Shown here: positions 2,260-46,071 of the stretch, in pieces
How the letters are laid out: every line of letters starts with the position of its first letter
Position numbering within the stretch: position 1 is the stretch's first letter
IMG/VR virus record: IMGVR_UViG_3300045988_173968
DNA length: 64,000 nt
Direction: 5' to 3' (one strand)
DNA from: a virus
Translations under genes and position numbers: made by a program
The notes under the pieces: model-generated
What the model saw: only the letters and a program-made list of their open reading frames with translations
What the model was told of the DNA's origin: nothing
Databases searched by the model: none

Positions 2260-2264
2260 CTTTT

Positions 2265-5160: not shown

Positions 5161-5165
5161 GAATA

Positions 5166-6211: not shown

Positions 6212-6212
6212 A

Positions 6213-30889: not shown

Positions 30890-31525
30890 TTACATCACAC
30901 GAAAATCTTCATATTTGATTTTCACAATGATGCGCTTGCCTGTGCGGTCTCGAAGCTCAACAGCCGGACGCCCAACAACGCCTTCCATAAATGCTGTGCC
31001 CATCGTGGACTTTGGATGTCCCTCAACAAAAGCAATTGCTTCGTCGATAGTACCCTCCAATACGATTGGAACTACATCAATACCAAGCATAGTTGCCGTC
31101 TGTTCTACCCACTGGCGTTCCTGATAGTTCTCTCCGACCAAAACATCAAAAAGGATAAAAGACACATCCTCCCGATAATTTCCGCCTTTTTGGATCTTCG
31201 GGCCATATCCCTCGCCAAACAGAATGACCTGTTTCTCGCCGTATGTCTGTTCAAACAGTTGCTCGACCTCCGGAGTCGAAAATGTATTGTTAAGGTACTC
31301 TAAGAGGAACTGCGGGATCGTAGCCTTGTCTGTTCTGCCAGCGAAGCTAATGTAGTGCCCATCCCAAATGACGCGAATATTGGTGCCGTCGAACTTCTCT
31401 GTGAACTGCCACTTGCTGTCCTTGAGATACTCCACGGCTTCGTTCCGCCAGTTGCCACGAATCAGCTTCTTTGTTCCGGTAGTGTCTCTGTTAAACACTG
31501 TTTCAATTTTGTTATACTCAACCAT
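30890..31525 (-). CDS. ATP-dependent RNA ligase-like nucleotidyltransferase
   Basis: Motif I TEKFDGTN (KxDGxN), FGEGYG, FILFDV, EGVVGRP, and motif V IIVKIK. Confidence 0.65.
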   Translation of the reverse strand: MVEYNKIETVFNRDTTGTKKLIRGNWRNEAVEYLKDSKWQFTEKFDGTNIRVIWDGHYISFAGRTDKATIPQFLLEYLNNTFSTPEVEQLFEQTYGEKQVILFGEGYGPKIQKGGNYREDVSFILFDVLVGENYQERQWVEQTATMLGIDVVPIVLEGTIDEAIAFVEGHPKSTMGTAFMEGVVGRPAVELRDRTGKRIIVKIKYEDFRVM

Positions 31526-31832
31526 TCTTATCCCCTCCTAAAACCTTCAATAAATCATCTTCAAAATTCTCAATTTCTACTGTTCTGAGGTCTTCAACAT
31601 CAATTAGATCGTCCTCAGTGAAGTCGTAGTATTCTAACTCCAAAGGGTCATCCATGTAAACAACTTCCCCAGAAACAATGGCATATGCATAACTGTCATA
31701 GATCCAACTCCAATTTCTTATACCCTCTTCTTTTAAGGCATCAATCAATTCAAGCCGCAAATCCAGACCCGATTTATTATGTTCGTTAAATCCGCGGATC
31801 GGATGCTTCTCCATTATTCTTACATCAAGCAT
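31518..31832 (-). CDS. GG-tail family small protein (tail ..FEDDLLKVLGG-DKNG)
   Basis: Shares an N-terminal fold with the next two ORFs (MLxVxLMxxxPxRG) and carries the C-terminal tail motif. Confidence 0.6.
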   Translation of the reverse strand: MLDVRIMEKHPIRGFNEHNKSGLDLRLELIDALKEEGIRNWSWIYDSYAYAIVSGEVVYMDDPLELEYYDFTEDDLIDVEDLRTVEIENFEDDLLKVLGGDKNG

Positions 31833-31834
31833 GC

Positions 31835-32113
31835 TTAACCTCCTAATAGAGTCATCAGCTCACTCTCAAATTGACAATCTTCATAATTTTCTACAAAGAG
31901 ATCCTCGAAAGTGATGTAGTCGAGATGATAACGACAAGCATCCACTACAATAAGGTTTTTCGGATTTATAAAATACATGAATTGAGAATTAAAATTCCAG
32001 TAAGTTGGGTTTATTACGCCTGCCTCTTTCAAAGCCTTTTGAAGCTCTTTAGCGTCATCTCTTTTTAATGGCCCACGAAGTGGTTTAACCCGCATCAAGT
32101 CAACATTTAGCAT
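31835..32113 (-). CDS. GG-tail family small protein (ends ..FESELMTLLGG)
   Basis: TAA stop directly after GG. Paralog of its neighbours. Confidence 0.6.
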   Translation of the reverse strand: MLNVDLMRVKPLRGPLKRDDAKELQKALKEAGVINPTYWNFNSQFMYFINPKNLIVVDACRYHLDYITFEDLFVENYEDCQFESELMTLLGG

Positions 32114-32115
32114 GT

Positions 32116-32391
32116 TTACACCCCCAATAGATTAAATAGTTCCTTTGAGAAATCCGGTATAGCGGGCTCAAAAAGATCGAGATACGAAATAAAATCACTC
32201 CGGTTTAATTCTGAACCACATCTAATATCAAGTCGATTGCCATTTATTTTGTATACAGATTTGTAGCTATCCATATGCCATCCGTCGAAATTGATTCCCG
32301 CATCTTTCATTGCTTCAAGTATTGCTTCTCTGTATATGCCTTGTGGACAGGTAATCCAGTTATTCCGCATCAAGTCAAGGTTTGCTTCCAT
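32116..32391 (-). CDS. GG-tail family small protein, degenerate tail (..FSKELFNLLGV)
   Basis: Paralog of 31835-32113. A truncated further copy (VLDIYLLRSHYFRGPL..) lies at about 32392-32466. Confidence 0.55.
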   Translation of the reverse strand: MEANLDLMRNNWITCPQGIYREAILEAMKDAGINFDGWHMDSYKSVYKINGNRLDIRCGSELNRSDFISYLDLFEPAIPDFSKELFNLLGV

Positions 32392-32479: not shown

Positions 32480-32766
32480 TCCTATTTATTGCAACCTGAG
32501 ATATCTGTTCCAAGTTTGGATCGCCTCTTCGTCGTCTTAAGTTGGGCTTCTGGCCCAATTAAGTCGGATTTGACTTAAGTTTGACTAGCCGAGGTGTGAA
32601 CTCCTGTACTGTTTATCGGACTTTGACCTAGTATATGACCTCGGGCAGCAAGCTGCCGGCTTCTCGCCTTCGCTAATCAGACTCCCTGGCGTCCTTCTTG
32701 CCCTCACAATGCGTTACAGCCGGTTATACCGAGCTGCTTTAGCAGTCGCTAAAAATATCGTTGCAA
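32480..32766 (-). ncRNA. Noncoding module X (about 287 nt) bounded by an 8-bp inverted repeat (ATTGCAAC...GTTGCAAT); retron-msr/msd-like
   Basis: No ORF. Its ends are shared with 36179-36479 (AAAAATATCGTTGCAA and TTGCAACCTGAGAT on the plus strand). Its interior motif GGTATAACCG..ACGCAT..CAAGA.G.ACGCC is shared with 35909-36175. A G follows the 5' repeat. Confidence 0.45.
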
Positions 32767-32775
32767 TTTTTTTAA

Positions 32776-32976
32776 TTATTTATTTTCTGAGAAAAGCTCG
32801 TCCACCGTGGAATCAAGAGCAGAAGCAATTTTCTGATAGTTCTCCAATCTGGAGCGAGTAAAGTTCTTTTCGATTTTGGAAACGGTAGCGGTACAGAGCC
32901 CAACCTTGTCGGCAAGGTCTTTCATGCCGTAGCCTTTCTCCATGCGCTTCTTCATCATTTCATAATTGTGTTTCAT
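32776..32976 (-). CDS. XRE-type helix-turn-helix regulator
   Basis: GYGMKDLADKVGLCTATVSKIEKN..LENYQKIASAL. Start at MKHNYE, which has an AAGGAGG RBS. Confidence 0.75.
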   Translation of the reverse strand: MKHNYEMMKKRMEKGYGMKDLADKVGLCTATVSKIEKNFTRSRLENYQKIASALDSTVDELFSENK

Positions 32977-33088
32977 AGTTAATACCTCCTTAAATGTTGA
33001 CAAGTTAGCAAAAATATACTACTATGGTCGTAGCACATTCTTTCTGTTTCATGGTGTGCCGCCGCCCTTCATGGGCGGCTCCTTTCTT

Positions 33089-33574: not shown

Positions 33575-33892
33575 TTAATTATCTAAAAGTGTTTGAAGCT
33601 CGTTTGAAAAATCATAGCCACCTGACGGATTTGACATTTCGATCAATTCCTCGATAGTGATAACTGGGTATGGCGAAAAAGTAATAAAAGTGCAAAACAT
33701 CTCAAGAAAGCCTCCGACTGCTTCTTTTATAAAATAACAATCGCCATCCCAACACATATAACATTGCAAAGATTTTTCGCCATCGTAAGCATCTACGGCA
33801 TGCTGCATTGTTGCCGCCCATTTGCCTATATCCCCGTGGAAGAACACCGCATATTCCTTGAGCAGATCCAGGTTAATATAGGGGTAATCCAT
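33575..33892 (-). CDS. GG-tail family relative, degenerate tail (..DFSNELQTLLDN)
   Basis: Paralog of 33905-34210 (both contain IEELIEMS / FVEMSSP followed by the tail). Confidence 0.5.
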   Translation of the reverse strand: MDYPYINLDLLKEYAVFFHGDIGKWAATMQHAVDAYDGEKSLQCYMCWDGDCYFIKEAVGGFLEMFCTFITFSPYPVITIEELIEMSNPSGGYDFSNELQTLLDN

Positions 33893-33904: not shown

Positions 33905-34210
33905 TTATATTCCAAGCAACGCTGCAAGCTGTTCGGAGAAATCTTCCTGCGGAGAAGACATCTCAACGAATTCGTCCCATGTTATTACTGGTCTGTCTTC
34001 TTCAAAATTACACAAGTTTCTGCATAACATCGTATTATGCACGATATAATACACCGCTTTATCACAATTCCATTTCATGCCGCAACTCAAGAGACCCGTA
34101 TAACAACGAACAGAGTATTTCATCGTATCGACCATGGTTCTACTCCAATGGTCAATCTTCAGAGCATATGTCCTCAACAAATCCAAATCAACATAAAGAT
34201 ATTCCGGCAT
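33905..34210 (-). CDS. GG-tail family relative, degenerate tail (..DFSEQLAALLGI)
   Basis: Paralog of 33575-33892. Confidence 0.5.
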   Translation of the reverse strand: MPEYLYVDLDLLRTYALKIDHWSRTMVDTMKYSVRCYTGLLSCGMKWNCDKAVYYIVHNTMLCRNLCNFEEDRPVITWDEFVEMSSPQEDFSEQLAALLGI

Positions 34211-34212
34211 AC

Positions 34213-34455
34213 TTATACCCCCTGAATTCCAAGAATCACATATCCGTCTTTAACAAAATCCGGGTCGGACAACGCATAGCAGATACGCATTGTCACAGAC
34301 TTTCCGGTATATTCACCGTTATACTCTTTCAGAATCAGAATATCTCCCACACGGAAGTCTCTGTCGTACTTACGAACCTCAAAAGTCTTAACTCCGTTCA
34401 CTACATCTCTGTAGTACGGTGGCCAGATTTTTAATTCATGTATCTTCGGATTCAT
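34213..34455 (-). CDS. ASCH/PUA-like (DUF3850-like) domain protein
   Basis: MNPKIHELKIWPPYYRDVVNGVKTFEVRKYDRDFRVGDILILKEY matches the recalled ASCH/DUF3850 pattern. ATGA overlap with the upstream gene. Confidence 0.55.
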   Translation of the reverse strand: MNPKIHELKIWPPYYRDVVNGVKTFEVRKYDRDFRVGDILILKEYNGEYTGKSVTMRICYALSDPDFVKDGYVILGIQGV

Positions 34456-34721
34456 ACGGCTGCACCTCCTAACAGTGTCATAAGCTCTTCTTCGAAAGTG
34501 AAAGGCTCCTCTACTTGAACTTTTTCGAGGAATGCAGGAACAGCCCATTCGATTCTTTCCCTACCAGAGTTTTCATGAATACAGATGCGATACTCGCGGT
34601 CGCTGAAACCAATAACCTCAATAAACTCAACACAACTACTGCGCCGATATTTATCAAGTCTCCAGGGCAATCTTTGATGGTTTACGATTTGCACAACATC
34701 TCCAACTTGAAACTTTCTCAT
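34452..34721 (-). CDS. GG-tail family small protein (..FEEELMTLLGG-AAV), SH3/KOW-like N-terminus
   Basis: N-terminus is MRKFQVGDVVQIV. C-terminal tail motif with a 3-residue extension. Confidence 0.6.
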   Translation of the reverse strand: MRKFQVGDVVQIVNHQRLPWRLDKYRRSSCVEFIEVIGFSDREYRICIHENSGRERIEWAVPAFLEKVQVEEPFTFEEELMTLLGGAAV

Positions 34722-34733
34722 ATACTCCCCTCC

Positions 34734-35882
34734 TTACGCAGCAACATCGTCTGCCATCATCTTGATGACATCGCAATGATACTTTTTGTTGTACCAAGAG
34801 ATCACATAATCAAAATACTCAGGTTCCACATTGCTATAATAAGAAAGCTTGCCACGCAGAGTCATTACTTCTTCCGGCGGCCAGCCCTTACCATCTTTTC
34901 TTGCAACTATGTAGTTATTCAGCATTGCCTTGAACACCTTTTTATTCTCGTGTCCAACAGTGATTTTGTTGTCTTTGTTGATCATCAAACCAAGACACCA
35001 GTTTCGACCTGCTCTGCTGCCGTAATGTGTTTTTTCTTTCTTAATGGTGTATGGCGCATCGAACTTCTTAAATACATCGTTCATCATCTCGATGACGCCC
35101 ATGAACAAGAAACCTTTCTTGGAAGAAACCGTAGCATCATCGGCGTAACGAGTGTAGACAAAATCGTTAGTCTCGCTGGCTCTCAATCGTCGAGAGATTT
35201 CATGGTCGATGGGAATCATAATGACATTAGTAAGAAGCGGAGAAATCGGAGTTCCCTGCGGCAGTCCACCATCGAGGAAACAGAGAGAGATAGCATCTCG
35301 TAGCGCTTTCTCGCCATCCTCATATTTAACAACCTCGCAGAAAGGATAAATCACGGATAACATCCGCATTGTGAATTCCAGCGTAGTCGAACCAAAGAAA
35401 TTGCTCAAGTCCGTCTTGAGGTACCAATTACTGTTGTTTCTTTGATGTACTTTCAGCGCATCAGTAGTGCTTCTGCCCTTGATGTACGCAAAAGCAGCCG
35501 TATGATATAGAACCTTAAAATCATTCTCGAAGATTGCCTTGAGACTATACAGAGCTTGTTTCAGTTCGTCATCCGGCGCATCGATCTGACGCCAACCGCC
35601 GGATTTCTTTGGAATTTTGAAAGAATTATAATGTTCTCGCATGTTGTTCGCATCAAATTTCGGCTGGTAAGTACGATTAAAACTCTTCAGCTTCCCGATA
35701 AGATACGGTGCTCGCGCCATTTCTTTTAGCTCCTGGGGGAGCTTTTTGTATTCGTAGGTTCTTGTGGATGTCCCGAAGTCCACTCCGTTAATATACGGGC
35801 TGAGATTTTTCACACCAAAGAGAACATCCTCAAGGGTAAGTTGCTTCTTTGCTCTTGTCATAAATGTGGTTACATATGGCAT
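34734..35882 (-). CDS. Reverse transcriptase (retron-like or defence-RT-like, 382 aa)
   Basis: FKIPKKSGGWRQIDAP, YLKTDLSNFFGS, LPQGTPISPLLTN, YTRYADDATVS (YADD) and LGLMINKDNK. No maturase or endonuclease domains. Confidence 0.85.
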   Translation of the reverse strand: MPYVTTFMTRAKKQLTLEDVLFGVKNLSPYINGVDFGTSTRTYEYKKLPQELKEMARAPYLIGKLKSFNRTYQPKFDANNMREHYNSFKIPKKSGGWRQIDAPDDELKQALYSLKAIFENDFKVLYHTAAFAYIKGRSTTDALKVHQRNNSNWYLKTDLSNFFGSTTLEFTMRMLSVIYPFCEVVKYEDGEKALRDAISLCFLDGGLPQGTPISPLLTNVIMIPIDHEISRRLRASETNDFVYTRYADDATVSSKKGFLFMGVIEMMNDVFKKFDAPYTIKKEKTHYGSRAGRNWCLGLMINKDNKITVGHENKKVFKAMLNNYIVARKDGKGWPPEEVMTLRGKLSYYSNVEPEYFDYVISWYNKKYHCDVIKMMADDVAA

Positions 35883-35908
35883 ATAAAAACTCCTTTCTTT
35901 TGTGTCGA

Positions 35909-36175
35909 TAAAACAGTCTAAAACACTTTCCTGATGACGCTGGAGGCGCCTGAAGACTCGCTGTTCTGCTAGTTACGGCTTCTAGTGACGGCGTTCTAGA
36001 TGAAATAAGGCCATCTTGAGTGCAGCTTTCTAATGGTTTGAACCATTATTTGCCAGAAAAGATGATTCGAGCTCGCCAGTCGCTCCTGGATCAGCTCCGG
36101 CGTGCCTCTTGTCTGTGACTATGCGTACCATTCGGTTATACCAAAATGCGCTCAATGAGCTATAACACTGTTTTA
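35909..36175 (-). ncRNA. RT-proximal noncoding module Y2 bounded by a 9-bp inverted repeat (TAAAACAGT...ACTGTTTTA); best msr-msd or DRT-ncRNA candidate
   Basis: The 5' repeat is followed by G. The 3' repeat ends about 25 nt before the RT ATG. The interior is homologous to module X over about 55 nt. Confidence 0.5.
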
Positions 36176-36178
36176 CTT

Positions 36179-36479
36179 TTGCAACCTGAGATGTGTGCGA
36201 TGATCAGCTACTGAGCTCTGGAGACCGGCTCCTCGAGTTTACTGCTGTATTATGTTTGTCTTTACCGTGCGTTGGTTTCTGGATAAGCGGTGGATGTTAG
36301 CAGTTTTGCTTTCGCAGTTAACCTATATCTGTCTTGGTTAACGATGATGTTCCACTTCACCTCGCCTACGCCAGGTACCTGCAGGCTTCCTTCGTGGTAT
36401 CCCGTTCCTTTTCGCTGGCAATTCAGTACATTCGCTTAAAACGAAATGCTTTGTTTTGAAAACAAAAATATCGTTGCAA
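36179..36479 (-). ncRNA. Noncoding module Y1 (about 301 nt) bounded by a 9-bp inverted repeat (TTTTGCAAC...GTTGCAAAA)
   Basis: No ORF. Shares both termini with module X. Internal hairpins are visible (TTGTTTT/AAAACAA, GTTAACC/GGTTAAC, GGAG/CTCC). Confidence 0.4.
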
Positions 36480-36488
36480 AAAAATCAT

Positions 36489-37172
36489 TTAATAGGTATC
36501 AATGGCAAAATTAAAAGCGTCCACCAGAATAATCTTCTTAAGGACACCTTTATTTACAAAGTTTACGAAGTTGGAAACCCCAAAAGAAACGATAGTCCAA
36601 ATCGTTCCCGCAACTGAAAGAGATACATTGCAGGCAGATACAGGAGTTGCCGCTCTTGCTTCCTCCTCGGTAAACTCCATAGAGCGAAGCAGATTGTCCT
36701 GCATCTTAGGATCAGACCAGTTGGCTGCGTAGTGTTGAGCATCAGTAAGCCGTGTCCGGAAATCAAAGACAGCTTTGATGTTCATGTTTGTTGCGTTTTC
36801 CTTGACGATTCTCCGCCGAAGCTCAATGCTATCTACGCAGAGGAAAACATAGCCGCTCAGACGCTGCTTGTCATATCCCTTATCGAAGATTTTCAGCTCT
36901 GAATCGATATCTGGATTGATTTTATGAAGCATTTCGGCAACCGCCGCAGTCTTGGGCTTGCCAATATCCTCAGTCGTAAACATCTGATTGGCAAGGTTAT
37001 GTGCCTCAACGACATCGAAGTCGTAAAGAGAAATGTTCGTCAGCCCCAATCGGGCCAAACAAACCGCCAAAGTAGAACCGACGCTGCCACAGCCGATAAT
37101 ATGGATGCGGGTCTTCGCACACTTGTCTGGATTAAAGAACTCGAAGCTCTTTGACAAATCCATCATCTGCAT
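36489..37172 (-). CDS. ThiF/E1-like adenylyltransferase (Rossmann domain only, 227 aa)
   Basis: IHIIGCGSVGS (GxGxxG) followed by LYDFDVVEAHNLANQ. Overlaps the JAB gene by 41 nt. Confidence 0.75.
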   Translation of the reverse strand: MQMMDLSKSFEFFNPDKCAKTRIHIIGCGSVGSTLAVCLARLGLTNISLYDFDVVEAHNLANQMFTTEDIGKPKTAAVAEMLHKINPDIDSELKIFDKGYDKQRLSGYVFLCVDSIELRRRIVKENATNMNIKAVFDFRTRLTDAQHYAANWSDPKMQDNLLRSMEFTEEEARAATPVSACNVSLSVAGTIWTIVSFGVSNFVNFVNKGVLKKIILVDAFNFAIDTY

Positions 37173-38058
37173 ATTCCTCCTCTAAGTCAATATCTTCGGT
37201 AATTCCACCGCCTATAACCTCAGCTTTTACCGAGTTTTTGGTTTTGGAATAATCCTCACTTTCGTTTTTTTTATCCTGTTTCTTACCGTAGTTGCCATAC
37301 GGATAATCATAGTCGTCCCAAAAATCTTCCCATCGACTACCGCATCCTCCGTAACCACCATATCCGTAGTCATATGTGCCACTCTTTTTAGAGCTATTGT
37401 AAGCACCTGTACCATGATAGGTATATGTCTTTGCCTTTACGAGTTTTTTGGACTCCTCCAGGAACTCACCGTTATCGAACTCAATAGAGACATCTATATC
37501 TCCATTCTCATAAAGCACATTGTTAGCGAGGTCGTAAATCTTAGCATTGTGCTCGTTCTTTTTATTCCAAATCACAAACACCCAAAATGTATCAGGTGAG
37601 CTATTCCCTACCCTGGTTGCCTGGTCAGTGAGATCAGTACCACTCGGGCTTGTCCCCATATTTACATGGCTGTGACCTTGGAAACGGATACGGTTGTAGT
37701 CCTCATCGGGGATTTTCTCGAGAAAAGCTCTGTGCTCATCCTCATCCGTGTCCACATTCACACCAGTAACGACTTGCGGGTACACAAAAACATCTGAGAT
37801 TTTGAAGCCGGCATCACCCACTCTGTCTACATATCCATACCATGCTACCTCAGAGTCAAAATTGTTGACCAAAGTAATCATCTTGGAATAGGCTTCGGGG
37901 GTGAAAATAATCTTCGCTTTACCCGTCTTCTCGCTTTTGAACTCCTTGGTGTATGTAAACTTGCCACCCTCGAAGCTCTTAGCGGATGAGATCTTCTCCG
38001 TGAATTCTCGAATCATTTCCGCAATTGTCTCTTTGGGAATGTTAATCATTTTAGCCAT
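37132..38058 (-). CDS. JAB/JAMM (MPN+) metallopeptidase with a G/Y-rich C-terminal region
   Basis: E (SEVAWYGY) followed by GHSHVNMGTSPSGTD, which is HxH-x7-S-xx-D. The C-terminus ..DGFVKELRVL resembles the family tail without GG. Confidence 0.75.
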   Translation of the reverse strand: MAKMINIPKETIAEMIREFTEKISSAKSFEGGKFTYTKEFKSEKTGKAKIIFTPEAYSKMITLVNNFDSEVAWYGYVDRVGDAGFKISDVFVYPQVVTGVNVDTDEDEHRAFLEKIPDEDYNRIRFQGHSHVNMGTSPSGTDLTDQATRVGNSSPDTFWVFVIWNKKNEHNAKIYDLANNVLYENGDIDVSIEFDNGEFLEESKKLVKAKTYTYHGTGAYNSSKKSGTYDYGYGGYGGCGSRWEDFWDDYDYPYGNYGKKQDKKNESEDYSKTKNSVKAEVIGGGITEDIDLEEEYADDGFVKELRVL

Positions 38059-39403
38059 TCTTCAACACCTCCATAGCTTCTTTCACGGTATGCACCGAAC
38101 CATCCTCGAACTCAATGAAACGCTCATTAGAAGAGCAGATCTTTTCAATGAAATTGGCGCCAACCGTCGAGTCATCAAAGTTGATATTGTGAGTAGAACC
38201 AATAGCCTGTTCAACTGCCCCAAGGTAATTTCTCTCACCCATCATACGATCAATGATTCGAGCATTACCACCCATGCAATGGAAACCGCAGAGATGAGGG
38301 TGAGGCAGATAAGTCTTGAGCTCTGCCAGATTTGTCTCTCTTTTATCTGGTCTCAAGGTACCAGCAACATCCAAGACAAAATGTGCCCAGGTGCGAATCT
38401 TGAATTTCGGATTCTCCCCAAAGACGCTATCCAAGAACAGCTTCATATCATTTTTGGACTTGATGTTCTTCCGCTCGCCATAGTTGCCATAAAAATAGCT
38501 GTATTCGTTATTGAGGCAACGCTCGAAGCTATCCTCATCAAAAGAGTCCAAATAACCCTTGACATAAAAGGAGATAAGCTCTTCGTCCGCATCTTCCAGG
38601 ATGAGATCCTTGCACCGGAGAAAGAACTTGAGAAATTCCCCTTCGTTGCCATCATTACGGCGAATTTTTTCTTCAAGAGCCGCAATTTGCAGGGTGTTAA
38701 AATGGTCTTTGTCGTAAAGGTCATCGAGCTGCCGAAGAAGATTCTCTATGTTGCTCTTAATTCTCGTGTATTCACTTTTCATTCGCTCCAACGAACTCTT
38801 CTCGAATTTCACATCAATGTCACTGAGAGCAGAGCGGATGAACATCTCACGCAGGTCAAGACGGTCATACAGTTTCTGAGATGAATCAGCAAACATATTT
38901 TCATCATTGCGAGAAATCGATTTCACGAGATCAAGCTCGTCGTTGTCGAGAGGCTTGCCCGCAAAGGTCGCAGGGAAGAGCTTCTGCACAATGCAAGCCA
39001 ACATACGACCAAATGACGAATCGAGCTTTTCGCTGTAGATGATGGAACGATTATTGTTTTCATCAATAAATGCCCAACCGACATCTTTTTGTTTGGAAAC
39101 GAAAAGACTTACCGGCTCATTCTGCTTGTAGCCAGCCGCAATAATGTCGGATTTATTCTCGCCAAGCCAAGACAAAGCGTTTTCACCGGAAATCAAATAG
39201 ACCGTGTTCCGCTCAGTTGGAATTGCATAATTGCTTTTTGCAATTTGGAGGTTGTATGTATTTTCCTTATCTCTGGGGTAGACCAGTGCTCTCAAGACAT
39301 GAGAATAACACTCCTCTCCGCCGATTGGTGTTACTGGGATATTGGTGCAAATCGTAGAAAACTTGTTGTCCGTAAATGTTGTGTTGCGAATACTTCGAAT
39401 CAT
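38051..39403 (-). CDS. Hypothetical 450-aa protein, first gene of the JAB/E1 operon
   Basis: Overlaps the JAB start by 8 nt. Has a central coiled-coil-like region and the C-terminal motif HPHLCGFHCMGGN. No family recognised. Confidence 0.6.
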   Translation of the reverse strand: MIRSIRNTTFTDNKFSTICTNIPVTPIGGEECYSHVLRALVYPRDKENTYNLQIAKSNYAIPTERNTVYLISGENALSWLGENKSDIIAAGYKQNEPVSLFVSKQKDVGWAFIDENNNRSIIYSEKLDSSFGRMLACIVQKLFPATFAGKPLDNDELDLVKSISRNDENMFADSSQKLYDRLDLREMFIRSALSDIDVKFEKSSLERMKSEYTRIKSNIENLLRQLDDLYDKDHFNTLQIAALEEKIRRNDGNEGEFLKFFLRCKDLILEDADEELISFYVKGYLDSFDEDSFERCLNNEYSYFYGNYGERKNIKSKNDMKLFLDSVFGENPKFKIRTWAHFVLDVAGTLRPDKRETNLAELKTYLPHPHLCGFHCMGGNARIIDRMMGERNYLGAVEQAIGSTHNINFDDSTVGANFIEKICSSNERFIEFEDGSVHTVKEAMEVLKNG

Positions 39404-39436: not shown

Positions 39437-39512
39437 TGGAGCTGGCGGACGGACTTGAACCCCCGACCTGATGCTTACAAAACATCTGCTCTACCAACTG
39501 AGCTACGCCAGC
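39437..39512 (-). tRNA. tRNA-Thr (anticodon UGU)
   Basis: GCTGGCG acceptor, GCTC-AGTTGGTA-GAGC D arm, anticodon loop TT-TGT-AA, GGTTCAAGTCC T arm, and CCA encoded. Confidence 0.85.
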
Positions 39513-39531
39513 AATGGTAACTAATTTGTGA

Positions 39532-40053
39532 TTAGGTTCCTTTGCGTGAAAGACGGCACGCAACAAATAAACCAATTGACATCACTATGGTATCCATCAC
39601 CGCTGCGACCATATTTTTCGGAATCTTTACTGCAAGGGGGATAGAAAAGAGCAAGCATTCGACAGCTGTTTTAACAACGCCGACGCCAAGTAAAACTGCC
39701 ACACCGGTTATTGCAATGTTTGACCCACACAAACTATCATTTTTCTGGTAGGCTTTCCCACAAATGATCCCAATCAGAACATTGCCAAGCATCCAACCAA
39801 GTGGAAACCAACCCGAAGAAAGCAAGCTTACGACAGTACACCCCGCACCGCCTACAATCGCGCCGCCAAGCATCCCGAACCTCATACAGCAAACCGCAAG
39901 CACTATATACCCAAGGTCAAGCGAAATATGGCCAATGCCAATCGGTATTTTGAGCACCATACTTACGACAACATACAGTGCAATACAAAGTGCAATTTGG
40001 CATATCCACATAGTGTTTTTTCTTATAGAATTTTCTTTAGTTGGTTTATTCAT
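39532..40053 (-). CDS. Polytopic membrane protein, ECF-transporter S-component-like
   Basis: 173 aa with about 5-6 hydrophobic helices. Size and topology resemble vitamin or queuosine-precursor S components. Weak call. Confidence 0.4.
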   Translation of the reverse strand: MNKPTKENSIRKNTMWICQIALCIALYVVVSMVLKIPIGIGHISLDLGYIVLAVCCMRFGMLGGAIVGGAGCTVVSLLSSGWFPLGWMLGNVLIGIICGKAYQKNDSLCGSNIAITGVAVLLGVGVVKTAVECLLFSIPLAVKIPKNMVAAVMDTIVMSIGLFVACRLSRKGT

Positions 40054-40399
40054 CAGTCGATTCTCCTTTCAACTTTTTACTGTCTACATATACCTCTATT
40101 GCCCTGTGATGCGCAAACTGCTCAAGAAGTTCGTCAAAAGATACACCATTCACTTTTGCGTCCACTTTCATTGCAGAAAATTGATCTTTATATTTCTTAA
40201 CCATGCTCTCTAAAGCGAGAAAATGTTCTTTGTCTTTCGGATAAAAAGCGATATCCTCAATGCAAACTTTGCTGATATCTTTTTCGTGGTAAATCGCTCT
40301 CAAACAATTTTTACATGGTTCATCCTCCGGCGATAATGAGAAGTTAATGCAATCACCGCAATAGACGGTAACTCCATTCACCTTAATTGGCTTTACCAT
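40046..40399 (-). CDS. Hypothetical protein
   Basis: Track ORF with a CGDC..CKNC Zn-ribbon. Confidence 0.5.
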   Translation of the reverse strand: MVKPIKVNGVTVYCGDCINFSLSPEDEPCKNCLRAIYHEKDISKVCIEDIAFYPKDKEHFLALESMVKKYKDQFSAMKVDAKVNGVSFDELLEQFAHHRAIEVYVDSKKLKGESTDE

Positions 40400-40423
40400 T
40401 AAAAATACCCCCTAAATTTTTAT

Positions 40424-40498
40424 TGGAGCTGAAGCCCAGACTTGAACTGGGAACCTGCGCTTTACGAGTGCGCCACTCTACCTTTGAGTTACTTCAGC
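40424..40498 (-). tRNA. tRNA-Thr (anticodon CGU)
   Basis: GCTGAAG acceptor, ACTC-AAAGGTA-GAGT D arm, loop CT-CGT-AA (A-A mismatch at the last stem pair), GGTTCAAGTC T arm, and CCA encoded. Confidence 0.75.
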
Positions 40499-40532: not shown

Positions 40533-40760
40533 TCAGGCGTTGGAGGTCTTCGCAATGCAGGACAGGCGGCAGGACTCAGTAATGCCGTAGGAGGCAAAGG
40601 ACTTGTCCATCTCACCGGCACGCAACGGAGTACCATCCAGCGCGGGGGTGGCGGTAGAATAATCTACATTGTTCTCATCGAGAACCTCTCGAATGGTCTT
40701 CTCAGCGTCTACGAGCAGAGTCTTACGATCCATGTTGTTAGTCAGAGTAATGCTTACCAT
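40533..40760 (-). CDS. Hypothetical 75-aa protein (possible beta-grasp-like fold; speculative)
   Basis: Track ORF with higher GC than its neighbours. A GC hairpin (40504-40521) follows the stop. Confidence 0.5.
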   Translation of the reverse strand: MVSITLTNNMDRKTLLVDAEKTIREVLDENNVDYSTATPALDGTPLRAGEMDKSFASYGITESCRLSCIAKTSNA

Positions 40761-40859: not shown

Positions 40860-41255
40860 TTACTGGACATCGATGGCAGCCTGAACGGAAGCAACCTCAG
40901 CCTCGATCTCGGTGAGAGTAGTACCAAGAGTCTCCTCCAGAGCATTCATCTTCAGGATGATGGCACCGAACTTGTCCTCAGCGTAGGTTTTAGCCTCGGC
41001 GGCAGACATACCGGTGGGGATCATCTCGGTGTAGGTCGCGTAGCCATTCTCGTCGTGAGAAGCGCTTACGAACACAACGCCATTCTTATTGGCGCTGGCA
41101 GTCTTAGTGCCAACATCAATGCTGAAAACGGGGTTCTTTTCTTTGTCGCGCAGAACCAGAGCATCGGGACGATACTTCTTAGTCTTACGCAGGGTCTCCA
41201 GCTTCAGGCCGGAAGTGAGTACGAGTGCGTCTCCATGGATAGTGATCTTAGTCAT
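40860..41255 (-). CDS. Hypothetical protein
   Basis: Start at MTKITIHG with an AAAGGAG RBS. Higher GC. No family recognised. Confidence 0.5.
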   Translation of the reverse strand: MTKITIHGDALVLTSGLKLETLRKTKKYRPDALVLRDKEKNPVFSIDVGTKTASANKNGVVFVSASHDENGYATYTEMIPTGMSAAEAKTYAEDKFGAIILKMNALEETLGTTLTEIEAEVASVQAAIDVQ

Positions 41256-41317
41256 AGTTTGACTCCTTTCGCCCATTTTGGGCATTAAAATTATTTATGT
41301 ATAACCCTGTCTGGGTT

Positions 41318-41605
41318 TTACAACGAAAGTATGTTCGAGAGCTGGTCAAAAAAATCTTCGTATGCAATTTCAGGCTCTATGCAGTCAACATAAAAACGGC
41401 GGTTGATTTCCTTCGCTCCAGGGATATCACAACTCCATAAGCCTTCAAGATTGTGATTATCGAACATGATCGAAACACAATTCGACTTACATACTTCAAC
41501 AACCTCACCAGCCTCTCCAATGAAATGACTTTCATCTAATCCGCTGTGTGGGTTTTTCTTAACAACAACCACTCTGTCGCCTACTTTGAATTTTGCCATT
41601 ATCAT
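41318..41605 (-). CDS. GG-tail family relative, degenerate tail (..EDFFDQLSNILSL), SH3/KOW-like N-terminus
   Basis: N-terminus is MAKFKVGDRVVVV. The tail helix is retained but GG is lost. Confidence 0.5.
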   Translation of the reverse strand: MIMAKFKVGDRVVVVKKNPHSGLDESHFIGEAGEVVEVCKSNCVSIMFDNHNLEGLWSCDIPGAKEINRRFYVDCIEPEIAYEDFFDQLSNILSL

Positions 41606-41829
41606 TCACCTCCAAATAATTTTAGTAATTCTTTCTCGAATGTTGGTTGTTCTTCCTCTGGCAAAAGGATAAGTTCATCCTTTGCAATTTCGTCTGCGGT
41701 CGGCATATAACAGTCTGCAGAATATGCAAATGTCCCTTCACACCTATTCTTACACGCCAAGTAATCGCAATTGTCAGGGTTGGCTGTTTCATTCTGACGG
41801 AATAGACAAAATTCATAAAAACAGTCCAT
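41602..41829 (-). CDS. GG-tail family small protein (..FEKELLKLFGG-E), Cys-rich N-terminus
   Basis: Tail motif with a 1-residue extension. Confidence 0.55.
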   Translation of the reverse strand: MDCFYEFCLFRQNETANPDNCDYLACKNRCEGTFAYSADCYMPTADEIAKDELILLPEEEQPTFEKELLKLFGGE

Positions 41830-42445: not shown

Positions 42446-42751
42446 TCATTCGGTACTCCCTCCCAATAATTTAAGAAGTTCGTCCTCAAAGGATTCTATT
42501 GGAGCAACTAACCGGATCTCATTTTCAAGAACCCAGCGGCAATTAGGATTATAAGCGTCAAGCTCCCAAGTGGACTCATAGGCATCCTCGAATGAGATGC
42601 AAAATTTTGCATTCAATATTCCATTAACATTTTCCGGTTCATTGAAATTAACATCAATAACAGTTCCAACAGCGCCAATTAAATCGTCACACGCATAATC
42701 GTCGTATGCAATATTCTCAACAATTTCTACATTATCGCCTACTGAAAACAT
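42446..42751 (-). CDS. GG-tail family small protein (..FEDELLKLLGG-STE), SH3-like N-terminus
   Basis: N-terminus is MFSVGDNVEIV. Tail motif with a 3-residue extension. Confidence 0.6.
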   Translation of the reverse strand: MFSVGDNVEIVENIAYDDYACDDLIGAVGTVIDVNFNEPENVNGILNAKFCISFEDAYESTWELDAYNPNCRWVLENEIRLVAPIESFEDELLKLLGGSTE

Positions 42752-43016: not shown

Positions 43017-43103
43017 TGGCGGAGAGGATGGGATTCGAACCCATGGCTCTGACGAGTCACCGGTTTTCAAGACCGGCTCCTTAAACCGCTCGGACACCTC
43101 TCC
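43017..43103 (-). tRNA. tRNA-Ser (anticodon UGA), long variable arm
   Basis: GGAGAGG acceptor, loop CT-TGA-AA, long variable arm, GGGTTCGAATCCC T arm, and CCA encoded. Confidence 0.85.
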
Positions 43104-43560
43104 AGGTCTAGCTGGTTTTCTTGTTTCTCTCAAACCAGCAAAGCATCTATCTACGCAAGTTCAAACCGTAGCCATTGGATGAACTTTTTCTCGACCCGCA
43201 GGGTTAGATGCTTTACCCCGCTTGAACATTTTCGCAGTCCCTAGCGCCTCACCACAAAGTCTTTACTCTGTGGAGAGGTCTGAGCGTTAGGCAAGCTGTG
43301 TACACTATTGGCCAATTTATGCCATGCAATTAGCACTCGCCCTGCGGAATCGTACCGCACCCTCATAAACCGTACAGTATTAAGAATGGCCATTCCTACC
43401 CTCGGTGGTTTATGATTCGAACCTCGCTTTGCTGTACTGATGTAGTAATACGACTCGTGCCATCCAGCAGTTCACACGAGAAGTGTGGGTTGAAGATTTT
43501 TAATCGACCTTTTAGCTAGCTCTCACTTCTTGGATTAGCGCGACCCACAAATTGATATTT
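43104..43560 (-). ncRNA. Roughly 457-nt ORF-free structured spacer inside the tRNA array (large ncRNA candidate, class unknown)
   Basis: Only short, implausible ORFs. Many local helices. Short stretches recall RNase P or tRNA motifs (GGGTGCGGTA, GGTTCGAATC) but no complete known core could be built. Confidence 0.35.
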
Positions 43561-43629
43561 TGGTTTCGGGTGGACTTGAACCACCGACGCACTGGCTCCC
43601 AGCTGCTCTACCTCCTGAGCTACGAAACC
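43561..43629 (-). pseudogene. tRNA-like gene with a truncated anticodon arm (13 nt instead of 17)
   Basis: Normal acceptor (GGTTTCG), D arm (GCTC-AGGAGGTA-GAGC) and T arm (GGTGG-TTCAAGT-CCACC). The anticodon region is GCTGG-GAG-CCAGT, a 3-nt loop. No CCA encoded. Confidence 0.5.
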
Positions 43630-43744
43630 ATATTTAATTGGACAGTCTTTCTGAATCTAGTGTGCGCATTGCGCCTTCATCTCTCTCCGCAACTGTCCGG
43701 GATGCGTCAAATCCATCCGCGTGGCTGTCCCGGGAACAGCTAAT

Positions 43745-43820
43745 TGGTACGCCATCAGGGATTCGAACCCCGAACTAGCCGGATATAAGCCGGATACTCT
43801 GACCGTTGAGTTAATGGCGC
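43745..43820 (-). tRNA. tRNA-Ile (anticodon UAU)
   Basis: ACTC-AACGGTCA-GAGT D arm, loop CT-TAT-AT, GGGGTTCGAATCCC T arm, CCA encoded, and a G1-U72 wobble. Confidence 0.75.
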
Positions 43821-43846
43821 ATTTAAGCAGGCAAGCCTTGGCACCT

Positions 43847-44359
43847 CTAAACGAGGTGCCGCCTGTTGGTTCGATATGTATTGATTTCTTCTTGAAGCTC
43901 GTCCATGATGTCGGTAAGGATCTCCACATAGTTTTCATCTTGGCAGTAGCGATAAGCCACATCTTCAAGTTTCGAACCTGTGTACTTCCAGGAATCTGGA
44001 TTGTTGTATTCCAACAGCCCTTCCGCAATGAACCAGATACATTCTTCAACGGAGTCGAACGACCGGAAACTGCCATCATATTGACGCCAACCTCCGATGT
44101 TATTTTTCTCCTTGAAGTAGGTTGATGTTCCCCATCCGCTCTCCAATCCGAATTTTGCAAGTAAGTACAGCGGGTTTATTCCGTAATACTTCCCTGTTTC
44201 GAGGATTGTCCAAGCATATGGGGACAGCCCTTCTCGAAGATTTGTCAGTACATACTCGAATTCTTCCAATGTGTAGTCCGTTTCATCGGTAAAGACTTCG
44301 TACCCATACGCCGGAACTACTATCAGAAGCGCTAAGAGGATTGCAATGATTTTACGCAT
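43847..44359 (-). CDS. Secreted glucosaminidase (GH73/LytD-FlgJ-like) domain protein
   Basis: N-terminal signal peptide MRKIIAILLALLIVVPAYG. INPLYLLAKFGLESGWGTS..NNIGGW. Ends at TAG (43849-43847), and a TAA follows 8 codons later. Confidence 0.65.
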   Translation of the reverse strand: MRKIIAILLALLIVVPAYGYEVFTDETDYTLEEFEYVLTNLREGLSPYAWTILETGKYYGINPLYLLAKFGLESGWGTSTYFKEKNNIGGWRQYDGSFRSFDSVEECIWFIAEGLLEYNNPDSWKYTGSKLEDVAYRYCQDENYVEILTDIMDELQEEINTYRTNRRHLV

Positions 44360-44391
44360 TTAATACCTCCTGAATTTTTGCCCTTGCGGGC

Positions 44392-44468
44392 TGGTCGGGA
44401 TGACAGGATTTGAACCTGCGACCTCGTACTCCCAAGGCACGCGCTCTACCAAGCTGAGCCACATCCCG
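44392..44468 (-). tRNA. tRNA-Pro (anticodon UGG)
   Basis: CGGGATG acceptor, GCTC-AGCTTGGTA-GAGC D arm, CGTGC-CTTGGGA-GTACG anticodon arm, GCAGG-TTCAAAT-CCTGT T arm, and CCA encoded. Confidence 0.9.
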
Positions 44469-44639
44469 ATAAAGAAAGAGCCTGCGGTTTTTCTACGCCA
44501 CAGGCTCTTCCACAGAAAGGGGGCGATGCACATCCCTGCATCTGGGGCTCTTTTTCCGGCTTGCATTTCGCAAGTCGCCTCTCGCACGAGCAGTGCTAAG
44601 GTTATCTCGAAAGGAGGTGCGGGGGAATGACGACCCCCG

Positions 44640-44726
44640 TGGTGCCGCTGGCGGGATTTGAACCCGCACGATGTTTCCATCGAGGGATTTTAAGTCCCTT
44701 TCGTCTGCCAATTCCGTCACAGCGGC
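44640..44726 (-). tRNA. tRNA-Leu (anticodon UAA), long variable arm
   Basis: GCCGCTG acceptor, AGGGA-CTTAAAA-TCCCT anticodon arm, variable arm GATGGAAACATC, GCGGG-TTCAAAT-CCCGC T arm, and CCA encoded. Confidence 0.85.
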
Positions 44727-45195: not shown

Positions 45196-45558
45196 TCATC
45201 CTCCTATCAGTGCCATTAGTTCATCCTCAAAGATTATTGGTTCCCGTAGGTCGGGGCGAAAAACATCAATGAATTCATCGATAGTATAGACAGGCGCTCT
45301 TTCATAGCCGTGCTCCTTATACCAAGACAGAGAGCAATAACCTTCCCATTTGATGGGATCATCATCTGAAACAATAAGAGATATAGTATCATCCTCTCTT
45401 CCAGAATCAAGAATATTTCGAGCCACTACGGAATGTATATCGACTGCGAAGAACTTTTTCGTGCCATTTCTATCATAAACTTCTGACATCGCATCGAAGA
45501 ATTCCGATTCTGTCATCTGTCTATCGAAGTGAACGAGAATTAACCCAGTTTTATCCAT
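45196..45558 (-). CDS. GG-tail family protein (ends ..FEDELMALIGG)
   Basis: TGA stop directly after GG. Paralog of its neighbours. Confidence 0.6.
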   Translation of the reverse strand: MDKTGLILVHFDRQMTESEFFDAMSEVYDRNGTKKFFAVDIHSVVARNILDSGREDDTISLIVSDDDPIKWEGYCSLSWYKEHGYERAPVYTIDEFIDVFRPDLREPIIFEDELMALIGG

Positions 45559-45559
45559 T

Positions 45560-45880
45560 TTACCCTCCTAATAGTTGCATCAGCTCGTCCTCGAATGGCT
45601 CAGACTCTTTAATGCCAAGAAGCTCAAGGAACTGATCAAGGTTGATTTCAGTGTAACCTGATATATAATGGCTTCCCTGTGGAGTATGATAAAATTCATA
45701 GTTGGCATATCCAAGACATTTGAAATTACCATTAAACCGAAGCCCTACGCCTCTTTTAAACTTTGCTACAACATAATCATTACTACTAAAGAGAGATCTG
45801 TCTATTTTTACACCAGCAAACATTATTTCGTCTATAAGGTTCTCGTCGAGAGCCTCGTGCAAGACCAAAAGATATTTCAT
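45560..45880 (-). CDS. GG-tail family protein (ends ..FEDELMQLLGG)
   Basis: TAA stop directly after GG. Start at MKYLLVL, which has a GGAGGGG RBS. Confidence 0.6.
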   Translation of the reverse strand: MKYLLVLHEALDENLIDEIMFAGVKIDRSLFSSNDYVVAKFKRGVGLRFNGNFKCLGYANYEFYHTPQGSHYISGYTEINLDQFLELLGIKESEPFEDELMQLLGG

Positions 45881-46071
45881 CCCAACCCCTCCATGATAAT
45901 CCGCCTGCAAATCTGATCGACTTCAATTTCGGAATTGCAAGCGTACAGTTTCTCTTTGTCTTTCTTTTTGAGTTTAATGCGGAAGTCCTTGATCATTTCG
46001 AGCTTTTTTTCTATGTACTTCTCCTTATCGGAAGTGATTTTTATGACCTTGAAATGCACCTTTAATTGCAC
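45877..46071 (-). CDS. Hypothetical K/E-rich small protein
   Basis: Track ORF. The start codon is uncertain. Confidence 0.4.
   Translation of the reverse strand: MQLKVHFKVIKITSDKEKYIEKKLEMIKDFRIKLKKKDKEKLYACNSEIEVDQICRRIIMEGLG

Follow-up and report, generated by a model that had tools for sequence, protein, structure and literature searches.

The stretch of DNA analysed here is a 64,000-nucleotide (nt) viral sequence (IMG/VR record IMGVR_UViG_3300045988_173968), referred to below in its whole length as the window, whose minus strand carries three overlapping genes for a protein of 450 amino acids (aa) that we call X, a JAB/JAMM metallopeptidase (JAB) and a single-domain E1 of ThiF/MoeB type. 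A first-pass annotation made from the sequence alone had described this trio with overlaps of 8 nt between X and JAB and of 41 nt between JAB and E1, and its coordinates and lengths were reproduced exactly. The statement that the E1 plus JAB pair is phage-borne is equally well founded, as near-identical IMG/VR contigs of 27-106 kb match the X region at 97-98% identity and the window encodes an integrase, NrdD, a DNA polymerase at 6213-9608 and a primase-helicase. Phage GenBank gave no DNA match and just one unannotated record with X, X was not found among the PLSDB plasmids, and a scan for promoters and terminators gave signals no better than those of shuffles. What the annotation had missed is a gene for a ubiquitin-like protein (Ubl) and its partner gene A, and also that the neighbouring reverse transcriptase (RT) gene and the 606-nt 'gap' before it are parts of the same conserved cassette, whose components share one strand and follow one another as A - Ubl - X - JAB - E1 - non-coding RNA (ncRNA) - RT, with unrelated genes occasionally inserted (Table 1).

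Table 1. Features of the cassette and its surroundings in the window, with the number of scorable loci that carry each gene (ORF, open reading frame; HMM, hidden Markov model; R1, covariance model of the 5' block of the ncRNA; a1/a2, inverted repeats flanking an ncRNA unit; L006/L015, close relative of the window)
Feature	Position	Strand	Basis	Loci
Protein A (141 aa), conserved first cassette gene	40860-41285	minus	synteny and HMM	101/102
Ubl (75 aa), predicted beta-grasp, end ..CIAKTSNA, putative cognate modifier	40533-40760	minus	AlphaFold2 and Foldseek	97/102
Insertion between Ubl and X, outside the cassette	39437-40498	minus	tRNA and Pfam calls, comparison with L006/L015	
Protein X (450 aa)	38051-39403	minus	ORF	102/102
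JAB/JAMM metallopeptidase (308 aa)	37132-38058	minus	ORF and JAMM motif	102/102
Single-domain E1, ThiF/MoeB-like adenylation (227 aa)	36489-37172	minus	ORF and Pfam ThiF	
ncRNA unit U1	36175-36488	minus	R1 36.7 bits, E 8e-5	
ncRNA unit U2, directly before RT	35908-36176	minus	9-nt perfect a1/a2 complement	
Retron-type RT (382 aa, YADD)	34734-35882	minus	Pfam RVT_1 E 1.3e-20; PADLOC	104/107
ncRNA unit U3, 2 kb downstream of RT	32485-32775	minus	best R1 match in the window, 45.4 bits, E 1.5e-6	
Tail genes, first group	31518-31832, 31835-32113, 32116-32391, 33575-33892, 33905-34210, 34452-34721	minus		
Tail genes, second group	41318-41605, 41602-41829, 42446-42751, 45196-45558, 45560-45910	minus		

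Relatives of the cassette were retrieved with an alignment of six E1 proteins as query and annotated with HMMs of six cassette proteins. From 290 E1 relatives in IMG/VR we kept 80 loci, on contigs of 15-151 kb, and from 292 candidate E1 relatives in GTDB, searched with one genome per species, another 80, about 50 of which carry the cassette. The counts given here come from the 126 non-redundant loci of both sources that have a cassette-type E1, and a locus was scored for X, JAB, Ubl and A when at least 5 kb lay upstream of E1 (102 loci) and for RT when at least 3 kb lay downstream (107 loci). The gene neighbourhoods of the homologues, to which the first-pass annotation had pointed as a check, disclose a conserved cassette, with X and JAB in each of the 102 loci, and the cassette is retained while X diverges to 22-30% identity. 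Likewise the RT, which had been listed as a mere neighbour, is found in 104 of the 107 loci with enough downstream sequence. The same gene order recurs in metagenomic contigs with other X homologues, and an unannotated 35-kb gut phage record (MT835544, our locus L007), whose X is 21% identical, encodes in succession a 141-aa A, a 78-aa protein, X, JAB, E1 and a retron-like RT. JAB may be separated from E1, and E1 from RT, by 0-3 unrelated genes. Nearly all records from bacteria belong to gut Clostridia (Oscillospiraceae, Lachnospiraceae, Christensenellaceae, Ruminococcus and others, the hosts being taken from the labels of metagenome-assembled genomes, MAGs), and some of their cassettes lie on bacterial contigs of 200-430 kb, which points to prophages. 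Carriers that may be available as isolates are Clostridiales Family XIII bacterium PM5-7 (L134) and Ruminococcaceae bacterium OttesenSCG-928-L11 (L104). On one 5.8-kb MAG contig (L008, positions 608-2372) ParA and ParB genes stand directly upstream of the cassette, which hints that some carriers are plasmid-like or phage-plasmids.

The cassette is predicted to contain a classical beta-grasp Ubl, because both the AlphaFold2 model of the 75-aa protein and its structural neighbours are ubiquitin-like. The model (14-sequence alignment; pLDDT 89, pTM 0.75) has a beta-beta-alpha-beta-beta arrangement, and its best Foldseek neighbours in the PDB are ubiquitin (6fnn_C, 6o82_B), ISG15, SUMO2, NEDD8 and TtuB (prob 1.00, TM 0.6-0.7), the ubiquitins among them being that of Caldiarchaeum with its Rpn11 homologue and those of S. 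pombe and human. The earlier statement that the locus has no classical Ubl is thus contradicted by a protein of predicted ubiquitin-like fold that lies directly before X in the relatives. Free Ubl genes mostly end in ..V-V-K-A-D-N-A, the window Ubl ends in ..K-T-S-N-A, and across the family the C-terminus is kept as ..K-x-D-N-A, often with 1-4 residues beyond it (A, AA, AI, LAA as in L007, TSK, H); rarer ends are ..DGG+C, ..DGA+R/RK and ..DSA+AI. In 25 of the 102 loci, L022 being an example, Ubl is fused in front of A, the junction always being ..K-x-D-N-A followed by A-x-I-x-V-x-G. In unfused loci A precedes Ubl, so that the fusion amounts to a permutation and therefore constitutes independent evidence for a functional tie between the two proteins. 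A JAMM-type processing enzyme would need such substrates, in which residues or a second protein are attached beyond a conserved terminal dipeptide, and to judge from these termini the Ubl looks JAB-processed. Comparable maturation of Ubl precursors is on record for BubAB, which is cut by BubCD (PMC11601596), and for the CsUb precursor, matured by the JAMM enzyme CsRpn11 (PMC6043591); processing by JAB proteins was predicted by Iyer et al. (2006), and JAB-matured sulfur carriers are an established theme (PMC1779556).

Protein A keeps its place by synteny in five of the loci annotated individually (L007, L008, L009, L012 and L014), and gave no match in Pfam, NCBIfam or PHROGs. In the window, Ubl and X are separated by a block outside the cassette, made up of tRNA-Thr(cgt), a 117-aa ORF, an S-component of energy-coupling factor (ECF) type (173 aa) and tRNA-Thr(tgt). 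The third of these, flanked by the two tRNA-Thr genes at 39532-40053 (minus strand), matches the riboflavin-transporter family ECF-ribofla_trS of Pfam with E 1.3e-11. The block is missing from the relative L006/L015, whose X is 98% identical and whose Ubl lies 221 nt upstream of X; because of this absence in so close a relative, the tRNA and transporter block looks like a recent insertion of auxiliary genes.

The two enzymes of the original trio answer to their first description. JAB has an intact JAMM site (Glu70 and H129-S-H-x7-S-x2-D, all motif positions checked) that is kept in all relatives, and the G/Y-rich tail ending in FVKELRVL; its profile scores are modest (PADLOC JAB models E about 6e-4; Pfam Prok-JAB only 0.038). 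E1 is a minimal ThiF-like protein with one ThiF domain (Pfam ThiF E 9e-24, residues 16-133), the GCGSVGS motif at residue 27 and residues D51, D53, K74 and D114, and has neither a CxxC zinc site nor a second adenylation domain nor an inserted CYS domain. Its best NCBIfam matches are ThiF, MoeB, CBASS-like Cap2_3 and PRTRC_ThiF models, all far under their curated cut-offs (PRK08644, 87.2 bits against 159; MoeB, 53.6 against 266), and the PADLOC E1-E2 (Cap2) profile covers residues 16-94 only (E 2e-18). With E. coli MoeB, in an approximate sequence, BLASTP aligned residues 8-122 at E 3e-14; the MoeB, ThiF and UBA5 references, like those of the four E2s mentioned below, were likewise approximate. 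Taken by its sequence, E1 resembles the minimal homodimeric E1s, that is ThiF, MoeB, UBA5 and the Bub E1. Its Cys181, in the motif PVSAC, is invariant in the six-protein alignment and stands eight residues before a conserved Pro, a spacing equal to those of Cys184-Pro192 in ThiF and Cys187-Pro195 in MoeB.

Protein X belongs to a large family. In a HMMER scan over 1.84 billion representatives its homologues formed 1321 clusters at 50% identity with E<=1e-3, and 175 with E<=1e-30, nearly all of them 440-500 aa long. The motif LPHPHLCGFHCMGGN singled out by the first-pass annotation is indeed present (residues 366-380), and lies inside the C-terminal domain rather than at the C-terminus, where it had been placed. 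Only two columns of a 130-sequence alignment are invariant, His370 and Cys376, and both fall in this motif, which reads P-N-P-H-x5-C-[LM]-G in the family; Met1, Phe2, Pro367, Asn368 (His in the window), Gly378 and Asn408 are near-invariant. The AlphaFold2 model (pLDDT 94.9) begins with an alpha/beta domain, continues in a helical region that includes a helix of 55 residues (196-250), and closes with a second alpha/beta domain (256-450), in which the motif lies. Foldseek retrieved a single match from BFVD, an uncharacterised Siphoviridae protein (E 4e-24), and X had no match in Pfam, NCBIfam, PHROGs, PADLOC or PDB sequences. Of the phmmer search and the 130-sequence profile run against PDB sequences, the profile gave coiled-coil noise only; no PP-loop family matched X of the window or 40 family members in Pfam, and a word-indexed protein search with X and Ubl returned close relatives only. 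The first-pass annotation had noted no recognisable E2 of UBC type, which agrees with the empty library searches and with a model of pLDDT 95 without PDB match, and its hope that a cryptic E2/UBC or ligase domain might emerge from a structure search of the AlphaFold model was disappointed, as no cryptic UBC, ligase or peptidase fold was detected in X. By hhalign comparison X is related neither to the PRTRC 375-aa protein (P 0.28) nor to Prok-E2_D (P 0.15).

Three weaker pointers to an E2-like role of X can be set beside these results. X stands between Ubl and JAB in every locus, the slot that is occupied by the E2 (BilB) in Bil operons; the P-N-x7-C-L spacing in its consensus Y-x-P-N-P-H-I-x-x-Y-x-C-L-G is that of the E2 signature Y-H-P-N-I-x3-G-x-I-C-L, and this stretch is the sole segment that hhalign pairs, at a non-significant P of 0.2, between the C-terminal domain and E2s; and the DSSP order of elements in residues 256-450 of the model (helix, two strands, two inserted helices, two strands, PN loop, Cys376, helices) resembles that of a UBC domain. 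Besides, the E1 relatives at about 32% identity, from Melainabacteria, Bacteroidota and candidate phyla radiation (CPR) genomes, form JAB-E1 pairs without RT, and in two such loci the protein just upstream of the pair carries an X-type motif, HPHVQEGKPCLGN in L168, where it adjoins a ThiS-like Ubl ending in ..KVEGG, and NAPHVNSSGEACMGN in L158 (hhalign to the X motif, P 0.0098 for the L168 protein and 0.0019 for that of L158). Because the shared motif, PH-x(5-7)-C-[LM]-G-N, recurs in such distant loci, a Cys/His domain of X type seems to be a regular partner of this JAB-E1 lineage. We propose X, a large new family, as a candidate non-canonical E2 substitute that would serve as thioester carrier or ligase. 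The distant loci (L150-L176; for example L168 at 3834-6633 and L158 at 1897-6738) make up a lineage of their own in Bacteroidota, Melainabacteria and CPR, in which a ThiS-like Ubl, extended beyond its ..KVEGG, is accompanied by JAB, a minimal E1 and a protein of 397-649 aa that has the X-type motif. There is no RT, and the NCBIfam PRTRC models fail to recognise this lineage; the neighbours in L168 look by eye like those of a conjugative element (a 444-aa ATPase, a DNA methylase and a DUF932-like protein).

On the nucleic acid side of the cassette, the RT belongs to the retron clade by its PADLOC scores (RT_II-A, E 1.1e-51 over positions 23-297 of the 304 in the profile; RT_I-A, E 1.9e-44), the 25 best PADLOC matches listed being retron RT families. 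The distance from E1 to RT is usually 270-600 nt, or about 1.1-1.5 kb with an inserted gene. Retron ncRNAs are laid out as a1/a2 inverted repeats enclosing a conserved G after a1, which is the candidate branch point, the msr hairpins and a variable msd. Aligning the 350 nt upstream of the RT in ten loci yielded two conserved blocks that conform to this layout, beside the RT, with a1/a2 flanks and with the conserved G. The 5' block consists of AAACTGTAATG, a hairpin and then GCTTCTTACTGTTAGTGGAAGT-AACAACTTGAG, and the 3' block, AGATTACAGTT, lies 10-25 nt ahead of the ribosome-binding site; AACTGTAAT of the 5' block and ATTACAGTT of the 3' block are reverse complements that covary between loci (GCATGTAAT/ATTACATGC, GACTGTAAT/ATTACAGTC, AACTGAAAT/ATTTCAGTT). 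The two hairpins of the 5' block comprise 15 base pairs at 97.8% pairing, 8 of them changed on both sides, and none of 500 shuffles was as good.

A covariance model of the 5' block (R1) matched 72 times across 67 sources; every match was on the gene strand, a locus often had several of them, and our initial supposition of a conserved RNA block confined to the position just before the RT was given up for this repetition. Each copy has its own a1, with the reverse complement 243-369 nt downstream in 26 of the 37 copies examined, and we therefore count one to four ncRNA units per RT. To our knowledge retrons ordinarily have one ncRNA. Several units within one phage genome were seen in the window and in L080, L009 and L084 (in the last at 10911, 12377, 12638 and 19240), some in tandem and some kilobases away from the single RT. 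In the window, the 606-nt 'gap' between E1 and RT resolves into two tandem units. U1 comprises a1 (36483-36473), the conserved G, two hairpins, a variable part and a2 (36185-36175), the complement being met at +303 nt, and U2 comprises a1 TAAAACAGT (36175-36167), the G at 36166 and a2 ACTGTTTTA (35917-35909), 27 nt before the RT start; the R1 match of U2 is weak (11 bits, E 0.048 in 331 nt), and the placement of its a2 agrees with ten other loci. U3, with a1 at 32770-32760 and a2 at 32495-32485, is the converse case, its a1/a2 match being weak when considered by itself (8 of 11 positions; p about 0.7 in comparison with shuffled a1). The minimum free energy folds of all three units are closed by a1/a2, and in L095, whose X is 79% identical, the ends of the ncRNA units are conserved and the middles have diverged. 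A first a1/a2 candidate (36421-36406 with 36065-36050) was rejected in favour of the two-unit model as it is not conserved in L095, and no Rfam family matched the ncRNA in the E1-RT gap. By its accessory genes the cassette fits none of the 13 retron types, in whose classification (Mestre et al. 2020) ThiF, JAB and ubiquitin are nowhere mentioned, and a full-text search of the literature at our disposal turned up no link between ThiF, JAB or a Ubl and a retron or RT.

Several further observations concern the surroundings of the retron part. The relative L012 (9905-11260 and 13545-13979) has two DUF6273 genes inserted between E1 and RT; after the RT comes a gene for RNase H, the enzyme by which the multicopy single-stranded DNA (msDNA) of retrons is trimmed. 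In the window, a gene for a putative 75-aa XRE-type helix-turn-helix protein (32776-33003, minus) immediately precedes U3, and a 111-aa ORF downstream of the RT (34213-34548, minus) looks by eye ASCH/DUF3850-like. Farther away, two adjacent matches at Rfam gathering score, to the DUF3800-XI RNA (16809-16856, minus, 44.7 bits) and to the skipping-rope RNA (16861-16945, minus, 43 bits), precede a methyltransferase-like gene of 396 aa (15288-16478). Since an effector domain of type VII retrons is DUF3800, the pair may be another RT-related or regulatory RNA. Finally, Rfam adds a seventh tRNA at 43561-43629 (minus, 50.8 bits), not reported by ARAGORN, inside the tRNA cluster at 43017-44726.

Putting these elements together, we regard it as fairly probable that the cassette, with the trio as its enzymatic core, is a module for the conjugation of Ubl to proteins and works as obligate partner of a retron, X being a non-canonical E2 substitute. 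The JAMM peptidase would first cut after ..K-x-D-N-A, shedding 1-4 residues or freeing Ubl from the Ubl-A fusion; it is in the Ubl sequences that such processing sites are visible. E1, probably as a homodimer, would then adenylate the terminal Ala of Ubl, a step we assign to it because it retains the adenylation residues. The activated Ubl would subsequently move, possibly via Cys181 of E1, to X, where the chances that it is carried on Cys376 are in our estimate close to even. X would act as E2 or as combined E2/E3, its variable and fast-evolving N-terminal half picking the targets, and Ubl would finally be joined to target proteins in a linkage that JAB could reverse. By analogy, the RT with its one to four a1/a2-flanked ncRNA units most likely has the usual sensor or regulator role of a retron, and would hold or release the conjugation module. 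As for the purpose, the integrase in the window and the cassettes on long bacterial contigs indicate that the phages are temperate, and a protective function for the lysogen or the infected cell is therefore favoured; most likely competing phages would be excluded by tagging of their proteins, as in Bil. More tentatively, with odds that we put somewhat below even, the whole may represent a new retron type whose effector is a complete Ubl conjugation machine with a non-UBC carrier (X), an Asn-Ala Ubl and multiple msDNA templates. In the boldest version of this idea Ubl would also be attached to the RT-msDNA complex, or released from it upon infection, such that reverse-transcribed DNA gates the tagging.

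Several results weigh against the conjugation module with X in the place of an E2. The model of X has no neighbour in the PDB by Foldseek (best E 0.43, TM <0.15), Pfam searches with 40 family members gave noise with no UQ_con or Prok-E2 match, and hhalign of the C-terminal domain with four eukaryotic E2s, in approximate sequences, reached a P of only 0.2. X could instead be a Cys/His peptidase, hence a hydrolase, or the retron effector proper. Ubl ends in Asn-Ala and not in Gly-Gly, which is unusual for E1 substrates. The equivalence of Cys181 with the crossover-loop Cys of ThiF and MoeB is ambiguous, as MAFFT places it otherwise and the HMM alignment ends early, and the N-terminal Arg-finger helix of MoeB is lacking in E1. 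With respect to the retron, it is co-occurrence and nothing else that suggests the coupling, and every locus was retrieved via E1 or X, so that our counts cover carriers only and not the frequency of the cassette in the phage clade.

The main alternative on the biological role is counter-defence or host takeover, which we consider unlikely; the first-pass annotation had also raised it, as a reversal of host Ubl conjugation. JAB would here strip host Ubl conjugates, such as the products of Bil and of CBASS Cap2, the phage Ubl, E1 and X would compete with or poison the host machinery, and the retron msDNA would serve as a decoy for host nucleases or sensors. Such a function would suit the position of the cassette, which lies with tRNAs and small ORFs in the early or accessory part of large phage genomes, its fixed place across diverged phages and the Cap2-like ATP-binding part of E1. 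However, a deconjugase alone would be enough for stripping, and the full activation set of Ubl, E1 and X argues for the making of conjugates; the chemistry would be the same as in the conjugation module proposed above, the difference lying only in whom the system serves.

A sulfur-carrier pathway would change the chemistry itself and appears improbable to us. E1 would make a Ubl thiocarboxylate, as in the ThiS/ThiF, MoaD/MoeB, TtuB and CysO systems, JAB would only mature the carrier, and Cys376 of X would relay sulfur onto nucleic acid, be it phage tRNAs, phage DNA or msDNA. The best NCBIfam matches of E1 to ThiF and MoeB models, TtuB among the fold neighbours of Ubl, the precedent of JAB-matured carriers cited above, the nearby tRNA genes and the invariant Cys of X are all compatible with it. 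However, the ThiF and MoeB equivalog models stay far under their cut-offs (e.g. 87 versus 159 bits), the Ubl tail (..SNA/..DNA) has no Gly-Gly end, X matches no PP-loop family, and the cassette and the conserved genes on either side showed neither rhodanese, cysteine desulfurase, PP-loop ATPase, ThiG/ThiH nor MoaE. What invariably accompanies the module is a retron RT and not a gene for a cofactor or for tRNA thiolation. The assignment of the trio to cofactor sulfur transfer, which the first-pass annotation had named as the outcome that would speak against its own view, did not materialise, the neighbouring genes being A, X, JAB and RT.

One of the two possibilities raised in that annotation was that E1 and JAB process or conjugate the small ..LLGG-tailed proteins encoded in the window, such as that of 42446-42751, as unconventional modifiers or substrates, and we now give it little credence. 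At least 11 small proteins of the window do share a C-terminal tail, F-[ED]-x-E-L-[LM]-x-L-L, followed by GG (plus 0-4 residues), GV, GI, DN or SL, and JAB itself ends in the related ..GFVKELRVL; their N-terminal parts are unrelated, several beginning with KFxVGDxV in SH3-like fashion. Several tails extend 1-4 residues past GG, like Ubl precursors, some Ubl orthologues end in ..DGG+C, so that the enzymes of the family probably accept Gly-Gly, and in type II CBASS an E1 can act on the tail of a non-Ubl protein (PMC11601596). On the other side stands a cognate Ubl with a conserved tail of its own. The link to E1 and JAB is also weakened by distribution, since the cassette is found in more than 120 loci and the tail family is expanded in this phage lineage only, with single look-alikes in 7 of 80 other loci scanned and a different shared tail, C.C.SLL, in L007. 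Moreover, 5 of the 12 tails, JAB included, end in GV, GI, DN, SL or VL instead of GG, from which it follows that the conserved feature is the amphipathic helix. The tail is thus probably, as read from these sequences, a docking peptide for a common partner rather than an E1 substrate. That the retron and the JAB/E1 module are independent of each other and only happen to adjoin in a variable island is very improbable, for even if 0-3 unrelated genes can separate JAB from E1 or E1 from RT and the distant JAB-E1 loci of other phyla have no RT, the RT comes after E1 in 104 of 107 loci, with order and strand unchanged, down to 22-30% identity of X.

Parts of the cassette have counterparts in several known systems, and none of these unites them. 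The Caldiarchaeum ubiquitin/Rpn11 operon has a canonical E1, an E2 and a RING E3, no retron, and a ubiquitin ending in Gly-Gly, all of which set it apart; it provides the top structural match of our Ubl, CsUb in complex with CsRpn11 (6fnn), and shares the maturation of a ubiquitin precursor by a JAMM enzyme (PMC6043591). The PRTRC cassette (operon type 6d of Iyer et al. 2006) has a similar layout on mobile elements, in which the larger protein PRTRC E is followed by a small Ubl (PRTRC C), a protein of some 375 aa without assigned function, either an E2 or a JAB, and ThiF. Membership was considered for this layout and for the ParB of L008, and rejected as the PRTRC HMMs fail, PRTRC_ThiF (TIGR03736) scoring 33.8 bits against E1 with a cut-off of 144.75 and the NCBIfam PRTRC models matching none of A, Ubl, X and JAB from the window, L008 and L009; in addition, PRTRC has no RT, and ParA/ParB appear as a PRTRC-like trait in L008 only. 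Type II CBASS (Cap2/Cap3) shares the JAB plus E1 pair and the Cap2-like ATP-binding part of E1. It differs by its E1-E2 fusion, absent here, and by the use of an enzyme tail where the cassette has a dedicated beta-grasp Ubl; no CD-NTase or CBASS effector was matched among the cassette proteins scanned for them, the remaining window having been left out of that scan.

Type I Bub (6E/DUF6527) also has features in common with the cassette. Its Ubl is made as a fusion that a JAB must cut (BubAB by BubCD), which parallels the Ubl-A fusions, its E1 is minimal, homodimeric and ThiF/UBA5-like, as that of the cassette appears to be, and both systems depart from canonical E2 chemistry. However, JAB and E1 are separate in the cassette, Ubl is fused to A, which carries no E2 signal, and not to an E2, X has an invariant Cys where Bub uses Ser/Tyr oxyesters, no cassette protein matches the serine protease BubE (DUF6527, PF20137) in Pfam, and Bub has no retron. 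The four roles of Bil, those of BilA (Ubl), BilB (E2), BilC (JAB) and BilD (E1), are found in the same gene order as in the cassette, and Bil is likewise linked to the conflict between phage and bacterium and likewise has no E3, its E2 being thought to pick targets directly (PMC11601596). The predicted fold of the 75-aa protein corresponds to the beta-grasp BilA and the intact JAMM enzyme to BilC, whereas X shows no UBC fold like that of BilB by Foldseek, Pfam or hhalign and the cassette E1 is one adenylation domain of 227 aa, with one ThiF domain, instead of the multidomain IAD-AAD-CYS enzyme. Further differences from Bil are the Asn-Ala end of Ubl, the extra protein A, the encoding by phages and the constant pairing with a retron. 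X as a candidate E2 substitute of new fold bears on the evolution of E2 function, and the cassette also offers a Ubl with an Asn-Ala terminus and a precursor in the style of ubiquitin fusions, besides placing in context many phage proteins of one large family so far labelled 'hypothetical'.

With retrons, finally, the cassette shares an RT of the retron clade, an ncRNA flanked by a1/a2 with its conserved G and accessory genes on the same strand; it differs from the known ones in its accessory set (Ubl, JAB, E1, X and A), in the several ncRNA units per RT, which make multi-template retrons of interest for retron-based tools of DNA production, in having no Rfam match and in being carried by phages. 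We found no paper describing the combination of a retron with Ubl, JAB, E1 and X, which on these comparisons appears to be an undescribed retron type as well as an undescribed phage and bacterial Ubl system. Bacterial Ubl conjugation, as known from CBASS Cap2, Bil and Bub, and retrons, which rank among the most actively studied subjects in the conflict between phage and bacterium, have so far been treated as separate systems owned by bacteria; here both are joined in one cassette across a large clade of phages and prophages of gut Clostridia, in which control of protein tagging by a retron, or of a retron by protein tagging, can be put to the test.

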